Positions 3,184-48,949 of a DNA stretch of 64,000 bases are shown piece by piece (position 1 is the stretch's first letter; every line of letters starts with the position of its first letter). The position numbers and the translations under genes were made by a program. Source of the DNA: Cyanidioschyzon merolae. Its lineage: Eukaryota. A model generated the notes under the pieces. The model was not told the origin of the DNA. It worked only from the letters and a program-made list of their open reading frames with translations, and searched no databases. Location of the stretch: the NCBI GenBank assembly GCA_000091205.1, contig AP006488.2; one strand, written 5' to 3'.

Positions 3184-6100
3184 GCCCAAGTTCGACGAAA
3201 ATCCATAGCAGGCGCGTGGGCTGTGCGTTGCGACCAGCGAAAGCACGCGCTTCTGTGTTCGAGTTTGTTTGTTTGTTTGTGTGTCGCATGCAGCGGTATA
3301 CAAGGCATCAGATGCCTCGATACTCGTGATGGCACTGAGATCGGCCTGGACGGCGACTCTGGAGCGGATCTGGTGCTTCCGCGGGGCCGCGTCGCTTCCC
3401 GGGGATCTGACCAAGGATGCGGCGCTTCGCAAATGCTTCATCGGATGCACTAGTTCGATGCCACGGTCGCGCAGCTTACGCATGCGTGTGCCCAGATACC
3501 AAAGCGCGTCTTCAGAACGAGCTTGCGACGCGTTTCATGCAAACGCAAGGCGCTCTTGTTGTGAGCGCGCTCGTGTCATGGACTGCATAATCGAGACTAA
3601 CAGATGTGATGGCTTGAAGCGCTTGGTTGGACGTCGTCGGTCGTGCGCCCTGGCGGTGATACCCGAGCCCCTCCTGTTTATCCAGCATGAACGCGCGCCA
3701 CTTTTCCATGCGTACCTGCCCCGCGCGCTTGCTTGGGTAGTTGCGCCAAACCGCGCGTCGACCTGTCATAGTCACCAGGAGCGTCGTGAACGAGCTTGCC
3801 CTGGGCGCAACGCTTCCGGGCGTGCAGCGGCATCCCACGAGGTTACCCTGGAGACGATCTCGCGACGACCGGTTGCCTTTGGTAAGCACCGGGTACTTTT
3901 CTCGATAGCGAACCACTGAGGACCGGACTCATGTTGTACAATAATGTCTTCTAAAGCGAAAGAATCTTAATCCGATGCCAAAATCGCACGCAACTCACAG
4001 ATGCAGCTATGTGTGGTGCATCCTTGCAGTTCCACCGCGATCGCCAGCATCGACACTGGAACACCCGGGCGAGCTCCGTAGCGATCAGTTTTCAGGTTCC
4101 AGGGCAGCAGGGACGAGCTCGTGACGTCTCGGGCAAGCCTTCCGTTGCTGGCGGTACACTAGCGGTTACCGGATTGCGTCAAGACTCGAAGGTGATGCGA
4201 TGAACGCACACCCTGTGTTGGGCCCGTGGGATTGAGTCCACTGGGAGCTGGAAGGCTTTGAATGGGAGCCTCAAGGTTCCCGGGGTATTGGAAGCCCGCC
4301 AGCGAACTACCCTGCGGGTGCACCGGTGCCCATGGGCGGCTCCAAGCTTCCCTGGATGCAGGGACACGGCAGCGTGCATTGCTGTTGTTGAGCCTGGCTC
4401 GAGAGACTCGGGCGGGTATGCACGCTTGAACGTAGCCAAGGCGACATTGGGATTTTCGTACCTTCGAGCTGCGGCAACTCTTTGAAGATTTACGTTATGT
4501 AAACTGCACTAATGCCAGAATAAACTGGAACTGGTGGTCTCATTCAGGAGTACACCCTAGCGTACGAGTCGCTTTCCGTTGTTAAGAAAACTAGTCTCTA
4601 CGGGCTTTGAAGGCGACTGCTTCATGCTCCTCCTACTTATCTCCGGCCTGAAATACGCCAGTTTATGCTGTCCGTCCATCGATGTTGATGGCATCGTTAA
4701 AGTCACGATTTTGCTTCCTCTAGACACTGTTCACGCATATCATGGACAGGTGGAAGTTGCGATCGACGATTCGCTTACCGTGCTCATCAGCTTCGTTTGC
4801 AATCTCGCTGCGCGCTTCGCAGCGTTGACACTGAACGGGGTTTTGAGGTTCCCATTAGTCTATGGCATGTTCTGGCCCGAGTGGCGCCCTGTGGCACGTA
4901 GACTAATGGGAACCGTCTTGGACACACGCTGTCCTAGTACAGCAGGCTACCCGCCATGAACTCCTCGGTTCGCGCGCCCGTTGCCGAACCCTACGATCAC
5001 GGCGTCTTCTGGGCGGTCTTCTCAGCGAGTACTCTGTCTGCTGCGCGAGGACGCAAATGCTGTCGTGCTCTTCGATAGGGGATTTCTGGAACGCGATGTT
5101 CTTTATGGTTGAACAAGAACCGGGAGGAGAATCCAGGTTCAGAACAATTCGAGAAATTACAATCTGTCTGCGCTTCCGTTGTGCAAAGCAGTGACGTATT
5201 TTCGATTCCACACGGTCGCTGCGATGACACGAGTCCGACTCCAAAACCCTTTGCGATGGGAGCGGTAGAGACGGCACCCGCTGGTAGCACATCCGGTGTG
5301 CAGGAACGTGCTGGTGACGAATCCCGCGTAGTCGATGTTCACTGAGAGGGAGGGTTTTGTGTTTCGGACAGATTTGACTATTATTCGGCGTGAAATGTTC
5401 AGTGTACAAGTCTGCTCGAGCAAGTGCGTCGAGATTCTTTTATCTTCAATGCAAGGACGCCAATCGATGCGCCTATGAGGTGCCTTGAAACAGAACTAGT
5501 GAAAACTCGTAGAATGCGTGATTTGAGCGTGCTATAAGTTCGGAATGGCAGGATTCAGAGGCTCGAACGCGTGAACCGGATAATGAAAGTGGCTATTTTA
5601 GGAACCGTTATTGGAGAACGTTGCGAATTATCTTGATTTCGGTGATGTAACACATGCCAGCTACAAAGCGGCGACGTAGCCACTCCAAAGAAACGACTGA
5701 GAATCCTCATGCAATACGTGAATCGATTCGCTTTTCCGCTTGCACTGCAAATGTTTGGCGTGTGTGCAGTTCGCAAAGCTCTGAACTATCGATATACTGC
5801 AGCTGGGCGAGCAGTCCAGTGTTCTATTTTAATTTGGCTGAATCTGAACGGCAACAAAGTGTCGGCATGGAGGTTGCCCCAGCTCTCTGCGACGCCTATT
5901 CGGATGTTGGAACAACGTCCTAGATTCGTGATTCGCCCCAAGGGTCGCTTGATTGCGTTTACACTTCACGGACGAACTCGGAAACAGCGATAGAGATCGT
6001 CAACGACCTGCTACCCGGAAGCCTTCTGGCGAGTTCACTGCCTTGACTATACCTGCAACAACTGGCAGCGAGCGCTACACAGTTCGATACTCGGATCCTG

Positions 6101-22303: not shown

Positions 22304-22689
22304 GCTCCATTGCGTTCGATCACTCGGGTTTTTGTTTGATGGTACGTCTACATTGACCTGGGGTTCCAGATTCCAGGTTGGATAATAGCATTCTTGAAAG
22401 TGCCCATCATGGTGCACCATACCTCCATGCGCCATTCCACATACTTGCTCTTGGACGTACCGGCCGCTTGATACGTTCTATTGTTCGCAGAGTGCCTGCG
22501 CTGCGCACCTGCCATAGCGCCTAAACCCCTGGTACAGATGCATCACGGAGACAGAACGACTTTACCATACTAGCAAGGGCATCGGCATGAGGCGCGCTCC
22601 ACTCGACACGGAATCAGGATTCATCATCATCCTGAGCATAGGGAAGCTGCGCAGACGGACCTACTGCATGCCGCAGCGCGAAGCGATGT

Positions 22690-22870
22690 ACTAGGAGTCC
22701 ACTGCGACCGGGGCGACGTCCAGATGCAGCTTACTTGTTCCTTGTCCCAGAATAAACTGCATTGCGGACGCGTTGCTCAGGTCTCGACACAACACCCCGG
22801 TATTGGAAGGAGCACGAGGCACTAGGCTGGCAGACTCGTCCGGCTCGCGTGATTCTCCGCCTGCAAAGTC
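22690..22870 (-). repeat. Short dispersed repeat (~180 bp), copy 1; homologous (~75% identity, opposite orientation) to 42290-42470
   Basis: The reverse complement of 22.7 kb ('gcgagccggacgagtctgccagcct...gacctgagcaacgcgtccgcaatgcagtttattctgggac') aligns to 42.3 kb ('gcgagccgaacgagtctcccaggct...gatctgagcaactcgtctgcaacgcaattcattctgggac'). The six-frame peptides 'DLSNASAMQFILGQG' and 'DLSNSSATQFILGLG' reflect this. Confidence 0.55.
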
Positions 22871-23392
22871 AACTTGAGAAAATACGGAAAACTCTGTTCC
22901 ATATGCAACGCTGAACATGAAGCTTGAATGAAAGTGTTATCCAGGTGCTTGTCAGTTGTCACTTTCTGTACTCTCGAACAGACTTTCTCGCAGGGTATTT
23001 GTGCCCGGAAATTGTTGCTCGTTGCCAATCTTCAGGAAACAGCATCGCCACCGGAGTATTCGGAATGGATCGCTCTTTACAAGTTTGACGTCAACCTCTT
23101 CAAACGCGGATGAGCATAATCGACGCACAACGACAGTCAGGTATCTGGATCATACATAGGCATACTTTCATGGACACACTTGGGAGTAACATGGCGGTCT
23201 CGGAATTCCCGTGGAGGACGTTCCCAGCGCTTGACCTGGCGATGCGTCCGAAAGCGCACCTGTGCAATGCGTTCCGCGAAGCACATGTCCGTAGACGGGC
23301 CGGGGCGCGAGAAAACTTTACTTCTGGCGTCTGCAGTCACTTTAGGGCTTTGCGCTGCGTTCAATATACGCTGACGATCCTGTACTCCGTCA

Positions 23393-28227: not shown

Positions 28228-29886
28228 CGGCTCGCTATCGCTCTGGTTGCGGTAGGGACAGGTGTCGTGCGTGTCGCGGCCTAGTGCTGTGGGGGCAACG
28301 GCTAAGAAGCACACTGCAGCGGTTCAGTGGTGGTATTATTGCGAAGGTGCACGGGGCTCTGGCCAAAAGCTCACTGGCACCAGAAGCTCGGCGAGTGGTC
28401 GCTGGGTGCGCACCAGATGTTCGCGCGATCGGAGAGCAACCGTGTCCGATACGAGAATCAACGTCGTGGATCAGGTTTGGTGGCGTGGAGCCCGCGGGAA
28501 CTTTTGGGTCTGAGGCTGGTCTAGGGAGCGCACCCGTTTTTGGTCTCGTGTGCGTAACGCGGACGCGGCACCGACTGAATGATCGCAGAAGCTGTTTTTG
28601 AACTAGGCATGTGCGGAAGCGCACCGCGACCGTAAACCGAGCATCCGCAACACATGAAGTCTCCGGCTGAGTGCACGCAGTCTCGCACGTTAGGTTTGCG
28701 CAATCGTAGGATACGCCGCACCTCTCCAGCTGGTGCGCTTCTTGCCTCGGTTCGTTGCAGGGAAACGGGGATGCGTCCTAATGGACGTCTGGGGGCATGC
28801 TAGTGCAGCGTTGAAATGTCGATGTTCTGCTTTCCAGAACGTCGTTTTTTTTTGAGGAGACGAGCTACGTCTTCTCCGATTCCGCATGTGGTTGATCAAG
28901 CACCCTGGCGACGGAATGTGAGGTTGCCGACGAAAAATGTACGTCTCGAAGGAGCGGTTTCACTACTGGTACGCTTCGATCTGGACATGCCGCATCATCG
29001 CCGTCTCGTTAGCTCGACCGATGGATTTTGAGCATCGCGCACACGAACCTGTTCCTTTGACATGCAATAACGGTACACTGAAGTGCCTGCGCTGTTCCTG
29101 ACTTGCGACGTTTTTCCGAATTTTTGTTAAATGGACAGCATCGATGTTGGACGTGCAGCAATAAACGATAGAATGCATTCCTTTTCCTATGATTTTCGGT
29201 TGTGTATTCGGAGTGGCTCCTTCGATTCTTTACGCCGGAAATTCTGACGTCACCGGGATCTGGCTGATTTACGAAGCCCGCCAATAGAGCCCAGGAAAAT
29301 GACCGATATGATCCTGCAATGCTTCCATACAAGCCTACATTCTGCTCCTCTTCTTACATGAAGCATACTCGATTATCGCATGCTGCAAGTTTTTGAGGGT
29401 TCTTGTTCACTGTAAGCTGTGGGCGCGGCAACTCGCGCCCCGGGATCGACAAGGAAACGTCTGGAAGACATCGCTTGACGACGTCTTTGCAAGCTCATGC
29501 CGATCGTTCACTGCAGTGGTCATCTCAAAGGATGGATTCCGTTCGAAAGATGAAACCTCGTTTTTTTTCTGGTCATCGAAGAAACTGCTCCAGACAGCAG
29601 CATGATAGCGCTCACGGGATCTGCACCGAGAGGTTCCCGTCCCTGTTGTCTGCGGGGAGAAGGGCCTCAGGCTCGGACGCGAGTCATTGCGGCGATTGCC
29701 TGCCGTGGAGCAAGTCTCATCGTTTTGTGCGAAGGGTGCCTAGACGAATTGCAAGTTCACATGTTTTTTCCAATGTCCATTTTCCAGCGGTAGCTTTTTT
29801 CAGCGTGTACAACATCGCATTCCGCAAATCCTCTATCGAATGAAATAGCTCGCAGGTGCATGTGAACCGGACCCAATGCTCGCCGA

Positions 29887-30236
29887 ATGTTTCTCCAGGG
29901 GGAAGTACGCGATCGTCCGGTGCGGTACCAGGAGCGGTACCGGAGGTCGGCACAGAGAGCGGAGCCTTCTGTACCAGTCAACGGCACGTACCGGGCGACG
30001 AAGAAGATGTTAACGGGGCGCCGGGCAGCGCTCGGCGGTGCTGCGTTGTCGACATATGGGAAGACCTTGTTACATTCAAGTGTTCACGCTGCGAAGATCG
30101 CAACGAAGCTGTAACCAATGAAGAAGGACATAGTAGGCAAAGCGTCGATAGCGCCCTCCGCCCGTACATCGAATGCGTGGACCACTGCTGGAAGCCACGA
30201 GATCGGGACTCGAACGCCGCCATCACTATGCTTTGA
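29887..30236 (+). mobile_element. TnpB/Fanzor-like (OMEGA-type RuvC nuclease) C-terminal remnant, subtype 1; frameshifted pseudogene
   Basis: Two overlapping frames give '...ALSTYGKTLLHSSV' (RuvC-II-like 'yGk.vv') then 'TFKCSRCEDRNE...RPYIECVDHCWKPRDRDSNAAITML'. This is a CxxC...CxxxC zinc finger followed by an 'RDxNAAxN' RuvC-III-like motif, characteristic of TnpB/Cas12/Fanzor. Stops and frameshifts are present. Confidence 0.55.
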
Positions 30237-30559
30237 CTGTGAACATCGTAGCTGGAAAGAAAGGGCACACCAGCTACTTGAAAACTGGAGATGTGGTAGA
30301 GAAACGAATCCGTAGTAGGAACAGCTCGCCGAGGTCGCAGTTGCGAAACACCTGGGAGCAAAGCAAACCGAATCGTGCACATCGGCATGATCAAAGTGTA
30401 CCCGTCCCATTCCAAGCTAACGTGGATAGATACCACTGCCATGATCAAATCGCTTGTAGACTATCAACGTACTTTGGGTTCACCCCTGATACGGTACATA
30501 GCAGGAGATCGAATTCGCGATGCAATGTAATCTATAGATTGGAGACGGATTGCCTGTAG

Positions 30560-31390
30560 AATAGATTCATTTCTGAACAGTACATAGCGGACTGTGTTCC
30601 TCCTTCAGTTCAGTTATACGACAGTACTCAGATGGTTGAGGAAGACTGATAAATACAAGAAGATACGCGCTGTGCCAAAAACTGATATTCTCAAAAGTGC
30701 TTTCGGTCCGTGGCAGAAAACGACCTGTTGATTACCGTACAGGAAGCAAAACCGACGATCGTAACGACCACAAGCGTCTCTGTTTCTCAACAGATTGTAA
30801 GTACCGTCCTGAAAACAATGGGATCTAGTTGCAGATAAAGAGTCCTTGGTCATACACGGCAAACTTCCAGCGAAATCGCAACGAATACAGCGTTCCTGGA
30901 AAGTCATTGTAAGTATGAAACACGGGCACGTCGCTGTGTTTGTTCAGTCAATGAAACTTGCTTCGGAAGAAACGATCGGACCATGCACGGGTATCTTCGA
31001 GGTGCATGGAGCTCTTTTTATGTACGATCAAACTCGAAGCGAACGATAACACCATCTCTTCTATCTGGAGTGTATTCATTTGGCGACCTCAGTTTCGATC
31101 GCAGAGGAGGCTTGTAGATCAGCATCCGCTTTGTCGAATCATTGAAGACTTTCCTCTGACGTCTTGCGCCGTCCTGCTGTTGGACAACATGACATTTCAC
31201 CATTCGGGTTGCAAGCGTGATTCTGTCTATTCTCACTAGGTAAAGCTGGTTTTCGTTCCCCAGTACTTTTCGTTGGTCGACCCCATCGAGGGAGTCTGCT
31301 CTATCGTGAAACGTAGTCATCGCTCCAATGGGCGATTCGCTGAAGCGTTCAGCGCACGGTGACCCACCGGGGCACATGTCGTCTCTCTTC
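30560..31390 (+). mobile_element. Tc1/mariner (IS630-like) DDE transposase remnant, copy A; multiple frameshifts
   Basis: Frames give 'TVLRWLRKTDKYKKIRAVPKTDILKSAFGP' (HTH region), 'VQSMKLASEETIGPCTGIF', 'LLLDNMTFHHSG' (DDE 'DNAxxH' motif) and 'VPQYFSLVDPIEGVCSIVKR' (the 'PPYSPDLNPIENVW' motif). Each segment has a counterpart in copy B at 46640-47730. Confidence 0.65.
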
Positions 31391-31830
31391 CACAAGTCCT
31401 TGTCTCTCGGGGAAGACGCTCACCCAGGGTCGTCAAGAAATGCGTTTATCTTGAAAAAATCAAAGGGAAAGTTATGGACATGCAACTCGAAGATGCTTGA
31501 GAGCGCCGTCACCACCCCGTTCCACAAAAAACGAAAAAGATCCGTTTCTCGCCAAGTACCGAGTGACGAAGAAGACGACGATGAGGGATAGACGAGAAAA
31601 ACAGGATGTTTGCCCTGCGGAACGATAATGAAACTACAGTGGTTCAGAGGGAGCGAATCCGAGGAATCCTCGCAACGCTGAATCCCATCAGATGCAAGAA
31701 ACGCATGGAGTTCGTGAACCGAGACCTTAACGCTGCTATGAATAGCAGACAATGTGCGATACTGAAGAAAATACCCGAGGAAAGAACACAATTGAACTTT
31801 CTGGGGCAGCCTCTTAGACTCTAGAAACGC
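31330..31830 (+). mobile_element. TnpB/Fanzor-like C-terminal remnant, subtype 2; pseudogene
   Basis: 'FILKKSKGKLWTCNSKML...' (RuvC-II/ZnF-like 'kGk...TSqtCs') then 'NPIRCKKRMEFVNRDLNAAMNSRQCAILKK...NFLGQPLRL'. It is homologous to the minus-strand copy at 41440-41890 ('ADCNARREFQNRYVNAAINTRRCAVL...NFVAQPLRL'; 'FSNLWTGASSRLQC'). Confidence 0.55.
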
Positions 31831-31940
31831 ACAAGGAGAAGCTGAAACTCATAGGAGGCCACCGGTCGAAGAACGCCCGAGAAGCGTCTCGACGTTGGTG
31901 TGGATTCACGCGACAGCCGCGGAACTGCGCTTGAGAATTT

Positions 31941-35036: not shown

Positions 35037-35075
<39 letters not shown>

Positions 35076-38000
35076 GCCACTGGGGAAGCGCTGCGCAGCT
35101 GCTGGTCCGGCGCCTGTTGCATCTGTCGTCGCAACCGCTATGGGTATCGCCGAAGAGGTCACTGCAGTCGCCACTCCGCCAACACCCATTGGAGCGCTCG
35201 TCGATTGCCCCGCTACAGAGAGCGGCGCTACCGATGGAGGAGCAGAAGCAAACGCCGACGGATACCCAGTGGTCTTCACCACGTGATTCTCCATCGCTCC
35301 ATAATTCCACAGTGCCGTTGCCCGCATAGAGAATGCCTCATAGACGCTAGCCGGTGGTTGCAACAGCGGTATCGGCGGTTGTTGCATCACAGACACGAGT
35401 GACGGAGGCAGCTGCGGCATCCGCCGATGCGAACTCATTGCTGCAACCAGCATGTTGGCATCCAGCTCGCGTGTCGCCCGCTCCGCTGCAGCACGTTCAA
35501 TAATCGCACAAGCGGTATCCAGATTCTCCGCGACAATGCCCTGCACTGCTTGTTCGACGATCGTCTGATCACCACCGATATTAGAAAAAACTGATCTTAA
35601 ATGCCCTATCATGGAAATACGCAAGGGATCCTTGCACGTGATGTGCGCCAGGCCGCTGGCTAACGCCTGTGCCATGCGCTGCCCAGCCATGAGCGCTAGC
35701 TCTCCATCTGCTTGACTAAAGTCCTTGGCGACGAGCTCCCGTGTTGTTACCAGGGCGATGAGTGCGGAACGCTCGGTCACTGGTTGAATAAATTCGCGGA
35801 TTGCTCGATCAATAGCAACTGCTACAATTCTCTTGAGTACAGATGGATTCTGGAACAACTCGGGGTGTTCATTCACACTGATGTACTGGGAGAGGTTGGG
35901 AATCACGGTCACGCCGTCGGCAATCGCTGCGGTTTGTGCTGCAAGCTGGGCAGCTCTTGCAGCCGCCAGCGGAGGCGCCGTGGTCGCCAAGTGCAACGAG
36001 GAGCGCAGTGCGCCCAGATCGAAACTCGAACGATCGTCGGAGCGGTCGGCTCGTGTTGCGCTCGCGAGTGCTCCAGCCGGCGTCGAGGCTAGAGCTGCTG
36101 TTGCTGCACCTGCACCTGCACCTGCACCTGCTGCTGCTGTTGCTGCACCAGGCGGCCGTTCCGTACCGGTTGTCGCCAAGCCCGGTGTTGCCGCTGTCGG
36201 TAACGTCGATGGTGTCGCGCTGTGCGGCGTGAGCATCTCTCGACGTGAACTCGGACTCGCCAAGAGGTCGCTACCCTCTTTGAATGTGAAATCGGGGTTC
36301 TCACGACCCACGGGGCGGCTGCGAGAAGCGAGCAGGTGCGTGGGTTTCACGCTGTGGAGATCGATCTCCACGTTCTTGCACAGCACCTCGACCTCGAACT
36401 TCAAATTCAGTTTCAGATCGGAAAGCTCGTAGATCTCGCGAAGCAGTCCAAAGATGGCGGCGATCCAGGGGTTCGGCAAGCGGAAGATGCGCGACACTCG
36501 ACATGCGTCCAGTATCTTGCAAACAAATGGGATAACGGCAATGAGCAGCCCGGTGGTGTACGCCTGCAAGATAAGCGCTTTGAGGTCCAGATCGCGGCGA
36601 AGAATAGGTCGATTCCGAGCCAGCGTGAGCGAACCGATCCACATCCCGATGTTTTTGAGCACAGAGCGCTCCGCGGTACTGTAGCGGATCTTTTCCGAGT
36701 TCAGCAGAATGCGCACATTATCGTACGATTTGCGGAGAACCAGTGGTATCAGATGGGGTGCATGCTCCAGGAACATGACGTAGGTAGCCTGGAAGTTTGG
36801 CTCGATGGATGCGCGCTTCACCACAATGTACTGTGCAAGATAATCCCAGTACTCCTCGTGAACAATCTCGAAACATTCGCGCACCTTGCTGTCCATGTTC
36901 TCCGGAGAGAGGTTATTGAAAATAAAGTGCACCTTATCCTGAATTGATGTATCAGGAACGCTCATAGGTCGCTGCTCATCGCGCGATGCCCGCAGCAGTA
37001 CCTCTAAGGTGGTCGGTGTCGAGAGACCGAATGCAGCTACGGCACTCGAGGGTGACGCTGATGTCGAAGCACGCTCCGCAGCACCCATAATGTTTTTGTG
37101 CATATCCTGCATTCCTGCGCCGGCTACTGTTTCACCGCGAACTCTTGGGGAAGCACGCTCGGCGCTGGCGCTCGTCGACTTGGCGTCAGCGCCTGTGCTG
37201 AGCTCAACTGCCACTGGTTTCTTCGCGCCGCTGCGGAAAGCATCGGATTCATCTGGTGCCTCTCCGTGGAATGCCTCGTGGCCTTCGGCGCCCTCTACGA
37301 TCGCCAAGACCGATTGGAAAAACTCAGGAGCTGTTTGGCGCAGGTGTGGCATCTGAACGATGTATCTGGCGTATTGGGGCCACTCCGCAAGGCGATGCTG
37401 AAAAGTTCCCAGCGCCATGAGACCAAACTGGAACATCTTATTCGGCGGCGACTTTCGCAGTGATTCCAAAAGATACCGCATGATCAGCGTGAACATCAGG
37501 GAGTGTGGAACCACGATCTCATTTTTGATGAGCGCACCAAAAAGTTCCGCTGTTATGCGGAGCTCTCGATCCGGGTACCGACTGAAAAACCGATACTCAT
37601 CGAGCAGATTGTGAATGATGCAGCGCACCAGCATATCATCCGATTCGGTGTGTGAATTTTGAAGCTCCTGGAGCTCAGTTATCGCTTGCGCTATGGACGT
37701 TTTCTCCGCATAGATGCGTTGGAAAAACTGATTCGCTCGCTCCTCGATCTCTGGTGGAAAAGCATCCTGGCTATCTCCCTCTTTTGCCGAAGTTCGACAA
37801 AGCTGATCGAGCTCTTCGCGCATGCGCTCGTCCACGAGGCCGACGTTCTCTGTCAACACCTTGAGCATCGTAGCCGTAGCCTCAAGCGAAAAGAGCGCAG
37901 CTGCATCTCCCTGTGCCGCCCGCTCGCTCAGATAATTGAGGCATGCCCCAAAAAACTCTGATCCGTGATCATGGAGACGATCGCGTAGCCACTTGCGGAG

Positions 38001-39215
38001 ATTGATGTATTCTCGCCGTGAAGCCAGCAACGCCAGATCGATCGCGAACTCGTAAGGACGCACCACTGCCAATGTTTCAGGTACAGCCTTGAGGTCTTGA
38101 GCGACATCCAGGAGACGAGCAGCGGCTGCCCTGTCTTTCTGCCAACAGTGCATGGCTGCACGTATGAGCGCAGCTCGATCATGTTGCCACACGCGGCGAG
38201 CGACTGCCGCTGAATTTGGGTTCGTGCCTCCCATCAGAAAAGACGGAAGCAGCACGTCCAGTGCATGCTCCCGCAGCGCAGCACCGCCCATTGAGGTTGG
38301 CTTCGGCGTCTCCGCTAGAGCACATGCCAACACCTCGGGCGCCTCCTGAATGCCTTGCTCGAGGGCTGCCTGCGCCTTTGGACGCAGCGCTGTGTCACCG
38401 AAGCTCAGCAGGTATTCGAGGATCTGTACCACACCCCAGCGCCAGTACGCGTCATGCTCCTGAATAAGCTTCACCGTCGACTGATGAAGACCCTCGATCG
38501 GCGCAATTGGACACAGCCGATTCTCCAATGAAGAATCCGGTGTACAGGTGGGAAAGCTCAGCCGTTGTTCGCAGAGACCCCAGCACAAGAGCGATATGTG
38601 CGCTTCGACATTCGCATAGGATCGTTCCACCAAGACACAGGCTGGGATACCCGGTTGACCCGTAACTGTGACGTATACAGCATCAAGCAACTCAAGTTGT
38701 GTGTTCTCGGTTAAGATGATGACTTCATCCTCATCCTCGAGTAAACAGCGCAACACAGAATCAAAGTCTTCACGAATCGAAGCTGGAACCAACGAAGACA
38801 GCTCCGCTAGCGTGAACACAACGCATGCTTGACTGTCCTCCCAGTCAAACTTGCGCTCCGAAGCCGACGGTTCGTCGCCAGCAGCGACCTCCCCGGGACC
38901 TCGTCTTCCGGGAGCGTCGTTGGAGGCGCGCGCCTGTTCCCATAGAAGCGCGCACGCACTCAGCGGTAGTCGAAACCGATCCTCTGCTGTGAAACGGCGT
39001 CCAGAACGACATCCGCTTCGATTCCCGGTGACAATACCCGAAGCCTCGAGCCGCGGCATTCGTCCCGTGTCCTCATCAGAAGGTTCAGCGAGCTGCAAAA
39101 GCACCCGCAGGAACCGAGCAAACCACTTGAGGTCAACATCTGCCAGGAGCGGCCACAGCTCACCTAAACCTATTTGTCGTGTCGTACTCGAGTCCCCAAA
39201 GTTCATACCGTTCAA
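32574..39215 (-). CDS. CNOT1: CCR4-NOT transcription complex subunit 1 (CNOT1/Not1), 2213 aa, with poly-Ala/poly-Gln/poly-Gly insertions
   Basis: Size and architecture fit. Not1 C-terminal superfamily strings: 'LFYRGVLRLLLVVLHDFPELLVESAPVLCDYIPLHCVQLRNLVLSAFPSKLRLPDPFSPEVTIE', 'YPNAHTSFFALSLLHLF'. MIF4G-like and CAF1-binding region strings: 'VHFIFNNLSPENMDSKVRECFEIVHEEYWDYLAQYIVVKRASIEPNFQATYVMFLE'. Homopolymer runs are encoded by (GCT/GCA)n at about 35.03-35.09 kb and (GCACCT)n at about 36.1 kb. Confidence 0.85.
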
Positions 39216-40872
39216 ACTAACCGAACAGCGTTATACTTTCCTGCTTGAAACTTTCATTTCCTTGGAAACTGAGAGAGCGCGGTCATCCACGAAGAGCGGA
39301 TAGCGCGCGATGGGTTCCGCGTCATGCGCATGCGCGCTGCCCCGACGACACGCAGAGCGACCCGCGATGCCATGCCGATCAATCTGCGTCTCGGTGCCAC
39401 GTCTGTCCTGTCCAGCAATGTACAGAAGTGTAACAATATATAATTTCATCCCTTCATAGGTAGAAAAGAATCATCGTAGGATAGTTTCGTGCAAGGTCGA
39501 TGATTGAGCAGAGTCGACCTGCGCGTCGATCGTGGACGCATCGCGATCGATCTGCCCGCGAGGCTCGCAGGCGCTCGGCACACGCAAGACACTTGAATTG
39601 CGAGTGGGTACACCATCAGCGTACGCCAGCTTCTTCAAGCGAGGTTCATCGTGAGCGACCAGGGGCGCGTCTTGTGCATGCGCATGGACAGCATGGTCAC
39701 GAGCTATGCGCCGTTGAGTGAGTTTGCCTGCATCCGCTACCGTCGGTGCACATCGAGCTCACGTGAGACAGCGCGTGCATGACATCTGCAAATGCGATAC
39801 ACACGAACGGAGTACGCTTCTGTGCGGCACGTGCGCTAGAAGTGGACGCGCGGCCTTGTAGCAGCTCGATTCGCTTCGTGGCGAGGACGAGGCTTCTGTG
39901 AGTACAGAGCCATGGTGACTTGACGACGATTGCTGTTAGAGTTTGATTCGAACGGGAGATAAAACCCCATCTATATCTGAGGTTACGAACGGCATTCAGC
40001 TTGTTCGCCAGGGTATCTTATCAAATTCGAAAAATTTCTTTGTATGGTTTCGCCAGAGTATCGTAGTATGCTGAACCGTTCCATCTGTTCATGCCGTTCG
40101 ATTCGTGGTTGAACTCTTGTCGTACATTCATGGAGTCGATATTCGAAGTCGAGCACGAAATGCTCAGTTATGCATACGGAATTTCATGATTCTCGGCTTT
40201 CTTTTCGCCGTGGCTCCTTCGACTCTCTGTCGATGGAATTCTTTGCGCCACCGCAGTCAAAATGATTCTCAAGGCCCGAAAACAATGGTTTATTACATAA
40301 CGAATACCGTTATCCCGTTCCTGGATACGCGTCGCCGTGCTTCTCTCTTCCTTACATGCAACATGCTCAAATCGCGCATTCTTCAGATTTTCGAAACTTC
40401 CATTTCAAGGCAAATGATGGATGCAGCGATTCGCACACCACGATGGATGAAGGAAAGATATCGATCTCGTCGCTTGGCGACCTGTCCGCACGCTCATATC
40501 AAATCTACTGACCTTGTCAGGTCAAAAAATGAATTCATATGGAAGGACAAATTCCAATGTGTTTGTGGCTGTCAACTATACGGCATTCCACACCAGCATC
40601 ATCCATCTCACGGAAAATGCTTGCAGACGCTCCCGTCTTGTCTGTGTGCGTGGAGGAGGGCCACGGCCTCGGATTTGAGTCACCATTGCGATCGTATGAA
40701 ATGGAGAATGTGTCATAGGTTTACCCGAAGCGAGAAACGTCGGGTCGAAGTCGCGCGAACTCTCCTGCAGACTGGATTTTCCTTACTGCACTTGTATCAT
40801 TATAGACAGCATCAGGTTCGAAAAATCCTCCACCGAATGAAACATCGTGCGCTTGCACGCACAGCAGGTGAC

Positions 40873-41229
40873 CTACTGGCCTGGGGGATCGCCCAGAGCA
40901 TGCTGGAAATCGTAGTGAGCTGCCCAGCGCGCGCAAACGGAATAGGGCATAAAAGCGAGCCCCCTGTCTCCGTCAAAGGGATGTACACGGCGATGAGGCA
41001 AGCATTCACGCAGCACAGGGCAGCACCTGGACGATGAATCGTGGTGGACACATACGGGAACACCTGACCACAGCCGTATGGCAGCGTTGGAAATGCAGCA
41101 TCCCGACGTTATGCAAGGAATCTGATAATGGCAAGCGATGTATGGATTACAACTCTCGCATGTGCACATCCGCCGACCACAACAGCCGACAACATCGAAA
41201 TTCGAAGTTTTTAACGCTACGATCACCAT
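40873..41229 (-). mobile_element. TnpB/Fanzor-like C-terminal remnant, subtype 1 (second locus); pseudogene
   Basis: 'CTCESCNPYIACHYQIPCITSGCCISNAAIRLW' parallels 'CSRCEDRNE...RPYIECVDHCWKPRDRDSNAAITML' at 29.9-30.2 kb: Cys-rich zinc-finger remnant plus 'SNAAI' motif. Confidence 0.45.
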
Positions 41230-41439
41230 TCTTTGACTGCTGACAACTCATCCGGGTGCAACGGAGTCACTAGCATATTCGAATCCATAGATAAAAGAGA
41301 AAAATTGAACCAGTTGCCGAAAAACCCGCAAAGACTGGTTCTGATGACAGTAGTACGTGACCCGCAGGTTAGTGTTCATGCGCAAGGTTCAAAGCCTATT
41401 TCCGACATATTCAGAAAAAAGTTTCCCAGAAATCGTTGA

Positions 41440-41890
41440 TCAATCAAAAAATGCCCCATGACTATCGATCGTAAACGTATACCCACTCACAGGTCCCTCC
41501 TGGCCTTTGTCGACGAGCCATCTGCCATTGGCTTCAGCTTTTTCTTGTACACTATGAGTCTGAGAGGCTGCGCTACGAAGTTCGCTTGCCTCATCTCCGC
41601 GGTTGTCGTCGTCAGCACCGCGCATCGTCTGGTATTGATTGCGGCATTGACGTATCGATTCTGGAACTCCCTGCGTGCATTGCAGTCGGCTGGACGCACC
41701 AGTCCAAAGATTACTAAAACTGGTCCACTCAGTGTCGATTTCTTCCCGCCATCGTCCCGTCGGTCGTAAACATTTTTGTCGTCCAATTCCCAGTTTCTTC
41801 TTCTTCCTCGTTACTTGCACTTCTCCATTCTTTGATATGGAAAAAGAGGATTTCTTTCGTGTTTTTCCGGCAGTCGGTGACATCGGCCCT
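41440..41890 (-). mobile_element. TnpB/Fanzor-like C-terminal remnant, subtype 2 (second locus); pseudogene
   Basis: '...KKLGIGRQKC...WTSFSNLWTGASSRLQC' and 'VRPADCNARREFQNRYVNAAINTRRCAVL...NFVAQPLRL'. The 'vNAAiNi.RRc' string is a close match to the TnpB RuvC-III consensus, and the segment is homologous to 31330-31830. Confidence 0.55.
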
Positions 41891-42289
41891 CCGGGAACCT
41901 CGATTCCCTTATCCGCAATGTTCTTTATTTTTTATTTCTGAAAAAGAGCGTAATTTGAACGCGTCTGCTATAAACCGCGAAAACACGTTTCATGACACGC
42001 ACCTGGCGATTGAACCCAACTGAGGTAAAAGACGATGCTTTGCGGTGGCGTCAACGTCGATACCTCTCGTACGTTAGAGCTTCATGCAAATGATAAGAAA
42101 CGTGTTTCCCTTCAACGCCAAGACGCATATCGTGTTTCATGCCTTCCAGATGTGGAGCTGCACGTATCTGTCGCGCTACAGAAAAGGAACAGAAACGACC
42201 CATTAACTAGCATCTGGATAAAATTTCATTTCCCTCGCTATGGTAACCGTTGAACGAGAGAAAATCTTTCCATATTGCCGAGAGTTCAG

Positions 42290-42470
42290 CTTACAGGCAA
42301 AGGGTCCTGCGAGCCGAACGAGTCTCCCAGGCTCGTGGTTCATGTCCCTCTCTCTCAGTGGCAGGTGCTTCAATGCGATCTGAGCAACTCGTCTGCAACG
42401 CAATTCATTCTGGGACTGGGAGCGGGTATGCTCCGTCTAGGTGTCGCCCTGCTTTGCGGGAGTGTCCTAG
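42290..42470 (+). repeat. Short dispersed repeat, copy 2 (partner of 22690-22870)
   Basis: See copy 1; nucleotide alignment done by eye over ~150-180 bp. Confidence 0.55.
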
Positions 42471-43571
42471 CACACCGCTTCGCGCTGTCGCAGGAAGTAG
42501 GTCCGTTAGCGCAGCTTGCAGGCTCCCGGAATTATTATATACGCCATTCCCGTGTTACGCGAACCACGCCTCGAGCCGACGTCCGCTGTCGTATGGCAAC
42601 GCCGTTCTATCTGCGTGCTGCATCAGTACCAGAGGTGGGAGCGCAATGCCGGATGTTCACGGCGTGCATTCGGCGCACAATAGAACGTCTGAAGCGACCA
42701 GTATATATCCGGGAACAGGTCATGGAACTTGGAGGTAGGGTGCAGCATGATACACGCTTTGCTGAAAGCCATTATCCATCTTGCAGTCTGGGATCCATGG
42801 TCCATGGAAACGTTTCGTCATCGAAGAAAACGGCGCCGCCAGCGACGCTTCCGAACGAAGCACCCATAACGTTCCTCAATTTTCCAATAAAGTCCATAAA
42901 AATCCGATATCGTCTATACCCAATCATCCAAAGCGCCACCATCGTGCAGTGCGCGGGAAAGCGAGTCCCAAAGTGCATGTGCCGGCGGGTGCTGGCCTCC
43001 GATCTGTTCGTGTGCGTGCGGTGCGCCTCCGCAGCAGCACACCATGCAAGGCGGTGCCATCGAGTGTCCAATTTCGGCACCGGGCGGTGTCGTGTTCACC
43101 ATTTCGCGCGCCGTGCGTGTCGTGCAGTCGACTTCCGTACGACAGACGCTGCCTGACGAAACATACTGCACACGCACGATTTCGGTGACTGTCTGTCCTC
43201 CACGCGGTATTGCGTGGAATCGATGCCTAGATCTCCAGGGGTGTGCGTCGAGGAGCAGAGGACCGGAACCTACCCGGTGACTTTGAGTGCGTTGGACTGC
43301 GTGCTGCTAGGTGCACATTTCGCTGAAGAGGAGCGTAGACGGGCGCTGCGTTCCGCGGTTGGAGAGCTTGAGACCAGTCTTGCGCCGTGAGGCGAGTTGG
43401 TCTCTATCTGGGTAGAAGAGACTCTGGGGCGTGAGCTTTTAAGGGGAAGCTCTACGAAGGTGGCGCGCACTTGTGCGGAACGAGCGCATGCGCGACTTGA
43501 AGCAGTCTCGCTGAACTGGGTCTCAACGACAACGATAGCTCTTTGTTTATCAGTTGTTGTGATTTGGAAGA

Positions 43572-45500: not shown

Positions 45501-46639
45501 ATGACACAACTGCTCGTGAAGACCACCACTAGATAAGCTCATAGTGCAGAGGAGCCCGCGCTTTTCGCTGGCTCGCCCAGCGACTTTATCTTGAGGCAGA
45601 GGTAGTTCACAGTTGAAGGGCTTCCTGGGAACCGAGAGCGGGAGCTCCAGATTCCCATCTTTTCCGGGTTTTGCGCTCTCGTTTGGACTCCATCCAGGGT
45701 AGGCAGTTGCACGTGTCCCGCGGAATCGACTGCGATGTACGGCGGCCTGTCCGCCGTGTTGCTTGACAGCAAAGGTTGAAGAAACGATGTTCATCTGCCT
45801 TCACTCTACACAGAAAACAGCTTCCTTTGAAAGCGGAGACCGGACAATATCTTGGAAATGGACCCTATACAAAACCCCGTAAACAGTGTAGCCAACAATG
45901 GCGACGCATCGACAATGGCACCCTTCCCCAGAAACCAGTTCCCGCAGATGCTGATCTGGCAACCTAGACCCGAGGCTGGTTTGAGGCACTGTTGCAGACG
46001 ATGTTTTTTTTTCTCGTTTGTGCGCATTTGCTACCCTTAGAGTCGGCACTGTTGGCTCACCGGTAACCGGCGAGTTTGATCAACTCGTGTGTCGCACAGA
46101 GCAGAAGCGCGCTTCTGACGTCATGAACGAGTGAAAAACTGTTTCGTATCGATGAAGTAGAATTCAAGTCCCCAAACAGCTTCCTTTTTGATATATGGAT
46201 ATGGGTACGAGCAGGGAAACGGACCCCAGCACCTCTGCAGACGCGCCCGAGTTCCAAGTGCCGTACACCTCTATGAAAGCTCGTCGCACCTGGTTCAGGG
46301 ACGGTGCCGTCGCAAACGCAAAACACACACGAGAGATTATCGAGACATAGCACATTTTCAGGGAGTCGCCAGCTCCTTTAGCTATCCTCGAGTCTTTATG
46401 GCGCAGTGCTTAAGAAGCGAACATGTTTCGCGAGCATAGGGAAAGTGAATATCCATTCAGAGTCACCTACCAGCCTTTTTTGACCGGCTGCCTGCAACCG
46501 GTTTCAGCTTCTTCTTGTACACTTCGAGTATGACTGGCTACCCTAGGAATTTGGATCGCGTCAGCACCTTGGGGCTCTTCCTCAGAACCGCACATCTTCT
46601 GATATTGACAGCGGCGTTCCAGTCTCGGTTCACGACCTC

Positions 46640-47730
46640 CATGCGTTAGGTGCCACTGACGGAACGCACCAGTGCAGGGGGTCGTCGATGTCGCACCCTT
46701 GGTGCCCTTCTCGCTCTGTCAGCGCTCCGTGCTTTTCTATTGCCGGAGCGCTCCACTGACTCTTCCCGACCGCGACTCTCTGAAGTGTACACCCCAGCGC
46801 ATCCTTTGGATTGTGATTTCTTCAAATGAACGCTCTTGTTTATGCCTCTAGGTAAGGTCCGTTTCTGGAGAAGACGGACTTGCGGAAGAAAGACGACATC
46901 CACCCGGGCGTGACACTGTGTGCTGAAAGCTTCAGCGATTCGCCCAGTGGAGCGATCATCAGCTTGCAGGATAGAAAAGGCTCCTTCGATTCTGTTCAGC
47001 CACGGAGCGTACGGAGGAATGGAACGCAGCTCGAATCCGCGGCAGCATCGGCCAAAGCTCGAACGTATGCGACGTGGAGGAATACCACGTTCTCCCATAG
47101 AGGGATGCTACCAGGCGTCAGGGACAAAGGTCTTCAACAATTCGATAAAGTTGTTGCTGTAGTAGGAGCCTTCCCTACGAGCGAAACTGAGCACGCTACT
47201 GGAATCCGCTTCAGTTAGAACAGATGATGATATCCTCGTTCTCTTCGAATTCGATCGTTCATACAACGTGCGCCCTGCGCTGCGGATACCTGTAGATGCT
47301 CCGATCGTTTCGGCCGAAGCAAGTCTCATGGACTGAAACAACAACAAACCAGTACTACTCTGCTTCATACAGATCGCGACGCTCTAGAGACACTGCCGTT
47401 GCGACTTTGGTGCAAGATGGCCATGCATGAAATCGGACGGTTTGGCGACTGAATCGCTGTGTTTTCAGGACCACACAAACGAGATGTTGATAAGCAGCGA
47501 CGCCCATGGTGGCTTCTACCGTCGCTCCAGCTTCCCCTGAAATGATCAATCGGTCGTTTTCTACCATAGATCCGAAGCACGCTTTAAGAATGTCTTTTTT
47601 TAGCGCGGAGCGCATCCACTTGTTTGTCACTGTGTTCCCCAACCATCTGCGTACTGTGGCATGACTGACCAGAAAGAGGAACGCAGTCCTCGTTCTACTG
47701 TTCCGTACTAAATGCGTATCCAACGGGCAA
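46640..47730 (-). mobile_element. Tc1/mariner (IS630-like) DDE transposase remnant, copy B (inverted relative to copy A)
   Basis: Minus-strand frames: 'AFLFLVSHATVRRWLGNTVTNKWMRSALKKDILKACFGSMVENDRL', 'FQSMRLASAETIGASTGI', 'PPYAPWLNRIEGAFSILQ'. The antisense peptide 'RKKDDIHPGVTLCAESFSDSPSGAIISLQDRKGSFDSVQPRSV' mirrors the antisense peptide of copy A, 'WKRDDMCPGGSPCAERFSESPIGAMTTFHDRADSLDGVDQRKV'. Confidence 0.65.
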
Positions 47731-48949
47731 CTCGTCTACGATTGATTCAGTACATGGCATCCGGAATTCGATCTCCTGCTATATACCACATCTGAGGGTG
47801 AATCAAGATTGACTTGGGAGACTATGTTCATCGAACGAGTGCTGCAGAGCGTATCCATCGCTTGAACCGGTATTAGAGTTCGAATTTTTTGGAGATGTTT
47901 GTCTGATTGGATACGGCATCTCGGGTAGTTTCTAAAACCGGTTTATCGCTGCAGGTAATTCCAAAGTTTGGTACCTGTAATGCAGTTTCCTTCTCGTTGC
48001 GCGATGATTCCAGAGCGTAGGGCGCGGTGCATCGACCCCGTGAACCGCACGGTACGCCAACACTGTCCCGTTTCCGGATGACGCTCGATGCAGAATGCTT
48101 TCCTGCCCGGCACACGTACTGATCGAGCCTGCACTGGTCGGCAGAGCATCGGAATGGGGCTCATCGTGAGCCCGCCGAGGAACTACGGTCCATACCTGAA
48201 ACCGATGTGGGGTTTTGCGTAACCGAAGATACTCTGTTCAGACGCATCGGTGCTGCAGCGGAGAGAAACGAGCAACCCGCGGGCTACAGGTTATACCTGT
48301 ACCCCAGCGAGTGAAGCACCGATCCCGGGGAATGCATCGAAGAAATGTGGCATTTATGTGCATTGCAACACTCAAGCACAAAACCCTCAAAGCTCCTTAG
48401 AACGCTACAATGTTGGCTGGCGTGTCGAACACATGTAACGCGGTAGCGCTGCAGCAGCTCGAAGACGCACCGTTGACTCGTGTTCGTTGATTATTCTAGC
48501 AAGCAGCTTACGAGCAGATCGATAAACGATTGTTAATCATCGCCGCTAGCATGACGCTTGCTGTTGAGCGGAACCGCGCGGAATCGACCTGCGCCCCGCA
48601 CGACGGTACTTTTTGTTCTGCCGCCAGTGTGTGTGTGTGTGTGTGCTTCCGTTGCGTACAGCTAGTTCGTGGTGCATCTGCGTTTCCGGGCTCCATCCTG
48701 TATGAGACTTGAGATTCCGAGTTCTCCTGCACGCGTCTGGGAACGACTGTGGGTGCAACACGCGGCGGGCGCCCCTATTTTGTACACTGCTCGTCGGAGC
48801 GAGCAGGGAAACCAGAGCGCAAGCCGGGCAGTATCGCATTCGCAAAAGGAATCCCGTAAACGCGAAACAACGTCAAACACTCGCAGATACCAGCGTATCT
48901 GTCGGTTCTAGTCGCTGCATACAACCAGTGTCCGGACACAAATACACAC

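Follow-up and report, generated by a model that had tools for sequence, protein, structure and literature searches.

Contents of the intergenic region

We analysed a window of 64,000 nucleotides, which exact protein matches assign to chromosome 6 of Cyanidioschyzon merolae 10D. Locus B, an intergenic region at ~40.1-42.8 kb between the NOT1 gene and the next gene, holds two element copies that lie tail to tail, B1 on the plus strand and B2 on the minus strand, with their 3' ends ~30 bp apart (Table 1). B1 is a copy of a ~1.15-1.25 kb unit, here called subtype 1, and B2 (subtype 2) is an internally deleted copy of CMe-1A, the Fanzor1 element of C. merolae with a 3169 bp consensus and a 734 aa Fanzor1 (Bao & Jurka 2013, PMC3627910). 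The same two families recur at 29-32 kb (locus A, copies A1 and A2), as a sequence-only reading of this DNA had noticed, and the lower GC content that it reported at 39.9-40.6 kb was borne out by the counts (45.1% in 39900-40600, compared to 57-58% in the flanking genes). When the open reading frames of locus B were compared with the annotated C. merolae proteins, none was found to be annotated. All copies are pseudogenes, and the locus is largely ordinary.

Table 1. Positions of the elements and their parts in the 64 kb window
Feature	Position	Strand	Basis or remark
D, solo subtype-1 copy	4554..5760	-	alignment; no CMe-1A sequence nearby
A1, subtype-1 copy of locus A	29140..30282	+	multi-copy alignment; 3' end ~90 bp shorter than in B1 and D
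A2, mariner-type transposase pseudogene (30588-31359) with CMe-1 remnant	30479..31904	+	joined at CMe-1A consensus ~855-869
Low-GC stretch	39900..40600	.	5' third of B1 and ~240 bp upstream
B1, subtype-1 copy, chimeric mariner-transposase / Fanzor1-tail deletion derivative	40140..41375	+	full-length alignment with A1 and D
B1 transposase N-terminus, paired helix-turn-helix DNA-binding region ('AVAPSTLCRW ... LTCNMLKSRILQIFETSISRQ')	40186..40551	+	transposase HMM; per-copy frames
B1 transposase catalytic core remnant, shifted frame	40550..40897	+	frame-stitched protein against transposase HMM
B1 Fanzor1 C-terminal remnant	40825..41236	+	hhalign to Fanzor1 C-terminal profile; per-copy frames
ORF previously read as subtype 1 (CTCESCNPYIACHYQ...SNAAIRLW)	40873..41229	-	antisense of the B1 Fanzor tail; not homologous to the locus-A ORF
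B2, internally deleted CMe-1A	41407..42823	-	blastn with published consensus, junction scan; 3' end estimated from T-rich terminal motif
B2 Fanzor1 C-terminus, CMe-1 amino acids 660-731	41475..41690	-	tblastn E = 3.4e-13
B2 Fanzor1 start remnant, CMe-1 amino acids 2-21	41854..41913	-	tblastn 65% identity, E = 0.003
B2 5' module, TE-N2_CMe equivalent, consensus 1-635	42185..42823	-	blastn with CMe-1A consensus
C, mariner-to-CMe-1 composite as A2	46461..47802	-	other internal deletion: consensus ~905 joined to ~2735

Copies, extent and strand of subtype 1

We found three subtype-1 copies in the window (A1, B1 and D) and two more on metagenome contigs (L004:2515-3653 and L006:1-1035), with one span common to all five. 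The A1/B1/D alignment showed a mean column identity of 74%, and the two metagenome copies aligned with B1 at 66-68%. B1 carries at least 4 frameshifts and several stop codons. The ends of the unit, placed where the homology between copies fades, are only approximate. Searches for TIRs at the B1 ends and for TA target-site duplications of subtype 1 found none, a result that is not decisive because the ends are heavily decayed, and the ends of the five-copy consensus gave an inverted-repeat score of 9, against a shuffled mean of 10. A word-index search for an intact subtype-1 parent yielded only two decayed fragments, a metagenome scan for the same parent yielded no relatives, and codon-phase conservation across the three window copies gave no informative signal.

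The DNA alignment showed that 29100-30300 of locus A is collinear with 40097-41300 of locus B across ~1.15 kb, with both copies on the plus strand. The sequence-only reading was thus right that locus B holds a homolog of the locus-A subtype 1 but had placed it on the wrong strand. The Smith-Waterman score of A1 was 158 against the plus strand of locus B and 16 against its reverse complement, compared to 12-15 for shuffled sequence. The two peptides quoted in that reading do exist as minus-strand ORFs (the first listed in Table 1, the second at 41487-41786), but the first matched the locus-A ORF in blastp only at chance level (E = 0.74, 13.9 bits). Because A1 and B1 are homologous plus to plus, the statement that order and orientation are reversed at locus B is wrong: the left-to-right order is the same at both loci, and only subtype 2 is inverted.

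B1 joins a probable transposase remnant to a Fanzor1 tail

The 5' two-thirds of subtype 1 is probably an IS630/Tc1-mariner-like transposase, comprising the helix-turn-helix region and the regions of the first and second catalytic Asp. It was assigned with an HMM purpose-built from 30 full-length relatives. The stitched subtype-1 consensus matched this HMM at E = 2.8e-20 (HMM 27-248 of 297) and the frame-stitched B1 protein at E = 4.2e-11; the B1 assignment thus uses partly frame-stitched sequences, and unstitched frames match too, namely the raw B1 open frame at 40075-41034 (E = 1e-5, HMM positions 4-134) and the raw D frame (E = 3.5e-3). In B1 the first Asp region reads 'VFVAVNYTAF..RRSRL..VTIAIV' and the second 'IIIDSIRFEKS', while the third catalytic residue and the transposase C-terminus (last ~50 residues) are absent. 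Pfam DDE_3 matched none of the raw subtype-1 ORFs, three-frame consensus translations or stitched proteins; the metagenome relative P0077 matched the purpose-built HMM at E = 1.9e-5 and DDE_3 only at E = 0.061. Subtype 1 was not detected by phmmer with the single PUl-1 transposase, so that the family HMM was needed, and PDB sequence searches with both subtype-1 halves returned nothing useful. An assignment of the 'FVDIDYTAF' block of subtype 1 to the RuvC-I motif of Fanzor was dropped, since P0077 has the DDE_3 pattern and the transposase HMM confirms it.

The 3' third of subtype 1 corresponds to the last ~134 codons of a second, divergent Fanzor1. The CMe-1 family HMM did not detect this tail, but profile-profile comparison did, with hhalign aligning it to the Fanzor1 C-terminal profile at a probability of 97.8% (E = 1.1e-12, 122 columns). 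Pfam gave only weak TNB matches, among them Cas12f1-like_TNB with the subtype-1 consensus (E = 0.008). From its start the B1 tail contains 'ILHRMKHRA..EIVVSC..PVSVKGMY..', a decayed RuvC-II and zinc-finger region, the RuvC-III remnant 'RNSKFNATITIL' and a stop. The catalytic Asp is lost from this remnant; the subtype-1 consensus reads 'RNRDFNAAITIL' at the same place and the CMe-1 equivalent 'NRDFNAAINI'. The zinc finger, decayed in B1, still reads CSRC...CVDHC in A1, and the RuvC-I region is deleted from both B1 and B2.

Two other accounts of B1 were weighed. It is very unlikely that subtype 1 is no chimera and represents either a mariner pseudogene with an out-of-frame 'RDFNAAI' ending or a Fanzor remnant with an unrelated 5' region. 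Each half is significant alone: the transposase half matches at E = 2.8e-20, with both its first and its second Asp region aligned, and the Fanzor half reaches 97.8% across 122 columns, in which four motifs follow in order and share one frame. The transposase match ends at HMM 248 of 297, without the catalytic third residue. The weak or absent Pfam matches, the ~70 nt overlap of the two assignments in different frames and the length of ~1.15 kb, near that of a plain mariner, are the points that a non-chimeric origin can claim. That the 310 aa ORF of B1 (40105-41037, plus strand) is a live, possibly domesticated gene is scarcely tenable: it is unusually long for a decayed element and the repeat family is transcribed according to Nozaki et al. 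(2007, PMC1955436), but the middle third of the ORF is out of frame with the transposase homology, catalytic residues are lost, stops fall at differing places in the sister copies, and the ORF is absent from the protein collection and the annotation.

B2 is an internally deleted CMe-1A copy

B2 was compared with the CMe-1A consensus and protein taken from the supplement of Bao & Jurka (2013, PMC3627910). In blastn, consensus 1-967 corresponded to 42823-41855 at 76.5% and consensus 2809-3103 to 41760-41473 at 65-68%, in collinear order. B2 joins consensus 1 to ~1050 with ~2815-3103(+), so that an internal deletion of ~1.75 kb spared the 5' ~1 kb, the C-terminal part of Fanzor1 with the RuvC-III region, and the 3' end. 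Of the nuclease ORF little more than the last ~100 codons is left; RuvC-I, RuvC-II and the zinc finger went with the deleted part. At 41634-41660 the RuvC-III motif has become NRYVNAAIN, a Tyr standing in place of the catalytic Asp, and the CMe-1 family HMM matched the B2 tail in hmmsearch (E = 1.9e-9) only at HMM positions 648-697. A placement of subtype 2 at the Fanzor N-terminus was ruled out, because the CMe-1A consensus places the match at the C-terminus.

B2 resembles CMe-1A in its order and orientation, in its 5' 635 bp, which resemble TE-N2_CMe, described as the 5' 635 bp of CMe-1A (Bao & Jurka 2013, PMC3627910), and in its Fanzor1 C-terminus; the identity typical of the family is ~80%. 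Unlike the full-length element, it has lost ~1.75 kb of the 3.17 kb unit and with it nearly the whole 734 aa ORF, and its homology fades 66-87 nt short of the 3' end of the consensus. CMe-1A is the same family as the 253-copy, 3.2 kb interspersed repeat with a WSV486-like ORF that was reported to be transcribed (Nozaki et al. 2007, PMC1955436).

The sequence-only reading had described this copy correctly as a minus-strand homolog of the locus-A subtype 2: 41533-41684 aligned with 31846-31693 at 71% DNA identity (E = 6e-14), and the CMe-1 protein matched 41690-41475 in tblastn (E = 3e-13). Its description of both subtypes as TnpB/Fanzor-like fragments also agrees with the C-terminal Fanzor sequence that we found in each (hmmsearch for subtype 2, hhalign for subtype 1).

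Sister loci and upstream mariner-type transposases

In the window, six relics of mariner-type transposases each precede a Fanzor1 gene or fragment, and at three loci (A2, C and E) the transposase lies directly upstream of Fanzor1 in the same orientation. The annotated 'hypothetical protein' CMF169C is a transposase remnant. On metagenome contig L003, an intact 395 aa DDE_3 transposase is followed by a 662 aa Fanzor1 of the CMe-1 clade, with TIR-like ends around both; TIRs were demonstrated for no window copy. On metagenome contig L001, an intact CMe-1 copy lacks an upstream mariner gene, so that not every member of the CMe-1 family is linked to mariner.

A2 and B2 lie on one deletion diagonal (1750-1755 bp) and align gap-free across the junction over 87 amino acids. 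Their 5' modules differ, with mariner replacing consensus 1-855 in A2 and a TE-N2_CMe-like kilobase in B2. A common deletion with differing 5' modules is not explained by the simple model of origin set out in the Discussion. Three deletions arose independently (in subtype 1, in A2/B2 and in C), and in all surviving derivatives the 3' end and the final 118-147 Fanzor codons are still present. A search for a guide RNA (omega RNA / fRNA) at the 3' tails gave no Rfam match, and RNAalifold on four CMe-1 tails gave a covariation of ~0 at very low power.

Side-by-side occurrence of the two families

Locus A has the two families in head-to-tail arrangement, locus B has them tail-to-tail, homology halts at each element's own ends, and the spacers of the two loci are unrelated. 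Both families have solo copies as well: subtype 1 stands by itself at 4.55-5.76 kb and on L004, as does the CMe-1 tail at 46.46-47.8 kb. For 2 co-occurrences with 3 copies of each family, the chance probability was ~0.05-0.2, depending on the number of intergenic regions that accept insertions; a uniform model with 17 intergenic regions gave ~0.05, and unequal insertion tolerance raised it to 0.12-0.21. Differing orientation, spacers and neighbours, together with the solo copies of each family, argue strongly against a composite unit.

A non-neutral co-location, in which one element favours the 3' end of the other or its immediate vicinity as insertion site (for instance because the transposase prefers such targets or because Fanzor guides homing to them), is improbable. 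The adjoining 3' ends of B1 and B2, the loss of ~90 bp from the 3' end of A1 with A2 starting ~200 bp further on, and the mild excess of co-occurrence would fit it; these are two cases only, with differing geometry, D and C are solo, no target motif or duplication is definable, and the excess shrinks when unequal tolerance is allowed for.

The sequence-only reading had suggested a composite repeat unit or paired paralogous Fanzor ORFs, inverted at locus B, a proposal that we consider highly improbable. Both families are indeed adjacent at two window loci, with the low chance probability of the uniform model, but only subtype 2 is inverted between the loci, the spacers show no homology, each family has defined ends of its own, copies D, L004 and C are solo, and the neighbouring modules differ, as a mariner lies between the Fanzor tails in A and the TE-N2-like 5' kilobase on the far side in B. 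The remark that no mariner sits between the two subtypes at locus B is literally true there, but overlooks that subtype 1 is itself probably in large part a mariner-type transposase remnant. An origin of locus B by segmental duplication of locus A, with divergence and a local inversion, is extremely unlikely: the left-to-right order of the families is shared, but no homology extends outside the elements, the A-B copy identity of 65-71% equals the general within-family divergence (unrelated contigs included), and A2 alone has the mariner while B2 alone has the TE-N2 module.

Discussion

These results indicate that locus B is very probably a small transposon graveyard, formed by two independent, non-autonomous, mutationally dead DNA-transposon copies that most likely arose from Mariner-Fanzor1-type composites. 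The family of B1, a second family of ~1.15 kb that is older than that of B2, is an apparently undescribed mariner/Fanzor hybrid, and the family of B2 (CMe-1A) has already been described. Judged from sequence, neither B1 nor B2 appears to have a present-day function.

Mariner-Fanzor1 composite transposons are known as PUl-1, PUl-2 and PGv-1, and the C. merolae element was listed as unclassified, without TIRs and not as a Mariner associate (Bao & Jurka 2013, PMC3627910); an association of Fanzor1c with Mariner/Tc1 has also been reported (Jiang et al. 2023, PMC10530073). Loci A2, C and E share with these composites a Tc1/mariner-IS630-type transposase directly upstream and in the same orientation. 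B1 looks like an internal-deletion derivative of such a composite, a likeness read from its gene order: the order is the same in the form of a fused remnant, but the transposase lacks its last ~50 residues and the Fanzor1 its first ~500 or more, and no TIRs or TA duplications are detectable in B1. As in MITE-like elements and Ds-type Ac derivatives, both ends are kept, the interior is lost, and the same deletion occurs at more than one locus (A2 and B2; the five subtype-1 copies). Unlike in those derivatives, the retained 3' part is 350-440 bp with 118-147 Fanzor codons rather than just a TIR, and TIRs are not demonstrable. The elements share with bacterial TnpB of IS200/IS605-IS607 a homologous RuvC-III 'RD.NAA.NI' and zinc-ribbon region (PF07282 E = 0.008-0.14), and differ from it in their eukaryotic host and architecture, in a DDE partner instead of a Y1 or serine transposase, and in being dead fragments.

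We infer that the parents were Mariner-Fanzor1-type composites built of TIR, transposase, Fanzor1 and TIR, for which L003 would be an intact example. Such elements would move by DDE cut-and-paste, and by analogy with TnpB the Fanzor1 guide-RNA nuclease may help to put the element back into the donor site that excision has emptied. Shortened derivatives that kept both ends could then have been produced by internal deletions of the kind that abortive gap repair leaves, and such derivatives would have been copied in trans and left to neutral decay. In this compact genome few intergenic regions tolerate insertions, and their accumulation there, rather than membership of one unit, would have brought the two families together at loci A and B.

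A wider proposal, which we put forward tentatively and regard as rather unlikely, is that the unclassified C. merolae Fanzor1 repeats (~5% of the genome) descend from IS630/Tc1-mariner-Fanzor1 composites and that the retained tail is a cis-required guide-RNA scaffold together with the right end. The retention of the tail in all derivatives would be explained if this segment carries such a cis-required module. If this were true, the small number of Fanzor1 copies that are still intact could draw guide RNAs or homing targets from hundreds of 'dead' tails.

What looked like 'paired Fanzor paralogs' proved to be two dead and unrelated transposon copies; one is of a family known since 2007/2013, and the strand of the other is now corrected. 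C. merolae has been reported to have only eight class II elements, against the six mariner-type relics in one 64 kb window. For at least part of the Fanzor repeats left unclassified by Bao & Jurka (PMC3627910), Mariner-Fanzor1 composites and their deletion derivatives offer a testable classification.

Homology between the two loci

The sequence-only reading had placed two TnpB/Fanzor-like fragments, subtype 1 and subtype 2, on the minus strand of locus B (~40-43 kb), in reversed order relative to locus A (~29-32 kb). Both quoted peptides were found, as minus-strand ORFs at 40873-41229 and 41487-41786. Comparison of the loci, as that reading had suggested, by blastn and tblastx (28.5-32.2 kb against 39.2-42.6 kb) revealed two homology blocks. 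Block 1 (B 40186-41239, A 29189-30239) comprised seven collinear segments, all in +/+ orientation, and block 2 (B 41684-41533, A 31693-31846) was inverted, with 71% identity (E=6e-14). The local alignment score of A1, the locus-A copy of subtype 1, was 158 against its plus-strand locus-B counterpart B1, 16 against the reverse complement and 12-15 against shuffled sequence. The minus-strand subtype-1 peptide was rejected as a homolog of the locus-A ORF (E=0.74): it is read from the antisense strand, and its 'SNAAI' arose by chance. These results indicate that locus B carries both families, that minus-strand placement holds for subtype 2 alone and that the families run in the same left-to-right order as at locus A.

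NOT1 and the next gene enclose the 4.35 kb of intergenic DNA in which the locus-B elements sit. The window genes are intronless with 57-58% GC, and the reported GC drop was confirmed (45.1% at 39900-40600). Sec23, CMF167C and cystathionine gamma-synthase, annotated C. merolae 10D chromosome 6 proteins, were each identical to a long window ORF, and none of the locus-B ORFs corresponds to an annotated protein.

Coordinates of elements, alternative frames and flanking genes
Feature	Position	Strand
D, subtype 1	5760-4554	minus
A1, subtype 1	29140-30282	+
B1, subtype 1	40140-41375	+
Alternative open frame, D	4903-5409	-
Alternative open frame, A1	29403-29843	+
Alternative open frame, B1 (310 aa ORF)	40105-41037	+
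A2, mariner-CMe-1 composite	30479-31904	+
C, third copy of CMe-1 tail, mariner-CMe-1 composite	46461-47802	minus
Locus E	57850-61034	+
NOT1 gene	32574-39215	minus
Next gene beyond locus B	43572-45500	plus

Subtype 1 combines transposase and Fanzor1 sequence

A1, B1 and D aligned end to end over ~1.15 kb (mean column identity 74%), with common boundaries where homology ends, and two further copies of the same span (66-68% identity) were found on metagenome contigs, L004 and L006, where the surrounding sequence was unrelated. Frameshifts and stop codons occurred in every copy. The 3' ~400 nt encode a Fanzor1 C-terminus in a single frame, 'LYRMKQ.A...VIVG.G.G...PVKGMY...VDIWE...CQRCE...C...RNRDFNAAITIL*'. 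The profile of this tail matched a Fanzor1 C-terminal profile (CMe-1, four metagenome relatives, PUl-1 and one Chlamydomonas Fanzor1) with an hhalign probability of 97.8% (E=1.1e-12, 122 columns), and the Pfam TNB domain matched at E=0.008; identity to CMe-1, the CMe-1A protein, was only ~26%.

Reading the 5' part as further Fanzor sequence was dropped, a metagenome relative (P0077) having a DDE_3-like 'IDETAF...PRGSR...LIAAI'. Because Pfam did not recognise the transposase part, we trained an HMM on 30 full-length (~300 aa) proteins related to the window DDE_3 ORF 58176-58814. This HMM matched the stitched subtype-1 consensus (E=2.8e-20, HMM 27-248 of 297), the unstitched B1 frame 40075-41034 (E=1e-5, helix-turn-helix region), an unstitched D frame (E=3.5e-3) and P0077 (E=1.9e-5). 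Alignment was good across both the first and the second Asp block, and the third catalytic residue lies beyond the end of the match. The transposase and Fanzor assignments overlap by ~70 nt, which places the putative B1 junction near 40825-40900. On the HMM and profile matches, subtype 1 is a predicted fused remnant of two-thirds of a mariner/IS630-type transposase and the last ~134 Fanzor1 codons. It is undescribed as far as we checked, ordinary, and belongs to a known kind of element.

An alternative frame is open across the first catalytic Asp region in all three window copies, probably as a by-product of GC-rich out-of-frame sequence. A frameshift immediately ahead of the second Asp block is likewise common to the three copies.

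Subtype 2 is the known repeat CMe-1A

CMe-1A is present in C. merolae as ~150 copies, every one with ~80% identity to a consensus of 3169 bp. It encodes a 734 aa Fanzor1 ORF, lacks TIRs and is unassigned to transposon class; its 5' 635 bp form TE-N2_CMe (Bao & Jurka 2013, PMC3627910). The same element was reported earlier as a 3.2 kb transcribed repeat with 253 copies and a truncated WSV486-like ORF, making up ~5% of the genome (Nozaki et al. 2007, PMC1955436). We mapped the consensus from the supplement of Bao & Jurka 2013 (PMC3627910) onto the window. B2, the locus-B copy, matched consensus 1-967 at 42823-41855 (minus strand, 76.5%) and 2809-3103 at 41760-41473 (65-68%), and tblastn detected CMe-1 amino acids 2-21 and 660-731. 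By these matches, the subtype-2 peptide 'REFQNRYVNAAIN...NFVAQPLRL' is assigned to the Fanzor1 C-terminus of B2; subtype 2 is thus an already known element. The originally proposed coordinates omitted most of B2, which has lost ~1.75 kb internally and carries Tyr for the RuvC-III Asp.

A2 and B2 lie on one deletion diagonal (1750 vs 1755 bp), their junction spanned by a gap-free alignment of 87 amino acids. The deletion in C differs (consensus ~905 to ~2735), with its breakpoint exactly at the Fanzor ATG and ATG microhomology. In A2 and C, a complete-length mariner-type transposase pseudogene replaces consensus 1-855 and joins the CMe-1 part at ~855-869. 31438-31904 (A2) and 41473-41955 (B2) share the ~1.75 kb deletion with unlike 5' modules (mariner vs TE-N2-like), which implies either that elements exchanged sequence, by recombination or template switching, or that the deletion recurred.

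Solo TE-N2_CMe-like sequence without a Fanzor part also occurred at 22344-22972 (+; consensus 11-634 at 78%) and 14537-14713 (+; 177 bp). At its 3' end (3110-3169), which the window copies lack, the published consensus has a GC-rich hairpin, GCCGCCA...TGGCGGC, and then a T run (see also L001:7350-7416 on a metagenome contig); detectable homology of all three window copies ends at ~3082-3103, just short of the hairpin.

Co-occurrence of the two families

At locus A the families are head-to-tail, with the A2 mariner between the two Fanzor tails, whereas at locus B they are tail-to-tail, their 3' ends ~30 bp apart, with a TE-N2-like module on the far side of B2. In a simple placement simulation, at least two co-occurrences had p~0.05 with 17 equally receptive intergenic regions and p=0.12-0.21 with only 7-10. 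Insertion clustering in tolerant intergenic DNA is sufficient to account for the co-occurrence, and a targeting preference is a less likely possibility. The composite unit proposed earlier was rejected, since orientation and neighbouring modules differ, the spacers have nothing in common, and solo copies exist (subtype 1 alone in D and L004; the CMe-1 tail without subtype 1 in C).

Origin of the elements

Mariner-Fanzor1 composites are known from Pythium and a Phaeocystis virus (Bao & Jurka 2013, PMC3627910), and Jiang et al. 2023 (PMC10530073) also found the association. The parents of the window elements were probably such composites, supported by locus E and by metagenome contig L003. In E, ORF 58176-58814, annotated 'hypothetical protein CYME_CMF169C', is the dead remnant of an IS630/Tc1-mariner-like DDE_3 transposase, and a Fanzor1 relic of nearly full length but in a very decayed state (59189-61034) comes directly after it. 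L003 (ENA, 3858 bp, 47% GC) encodes an intact 395 aa DDE_3 transposase and, immediately downstream and overlapping, a 662 aa CMe-1-clade Fanzor1 (33% identical to CMe-1). TIR-like ends 'GGACCAT..TTGGGACACCCyATAGAACCG' at 310-350 and 3758-3798 flank both genes, apparently making it an intact composite element. Internal deletions that kept both ends, then mobilisation in trans and neutral decay, would explain B1, B2, A2 and C. L001 holds an intact CMe-1 copy without an upstream mariner gene, which counts against generalising the composite origin. E also forms a third, older mariner-then-Fanzor1 pair within the window.

Three independent deletions all keep 118-147 Fanzor codons and the 3' end. 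A module needed in cis, for the guide RNA or the right end, is one possible reason for the retained tail, but neither Rfam nor RNAalifold (four sequences) supported it. TIRs and target-site duplications were not found for the window copies.

Within its 64 kb, the window carries six relics of mariner-type transposases (A1, B1, D, A2, C and E), whereas the 2007 genome paper gave a genome-wide count of just eight class II elements, so decayed DNA transposons have probably been much under-counted.
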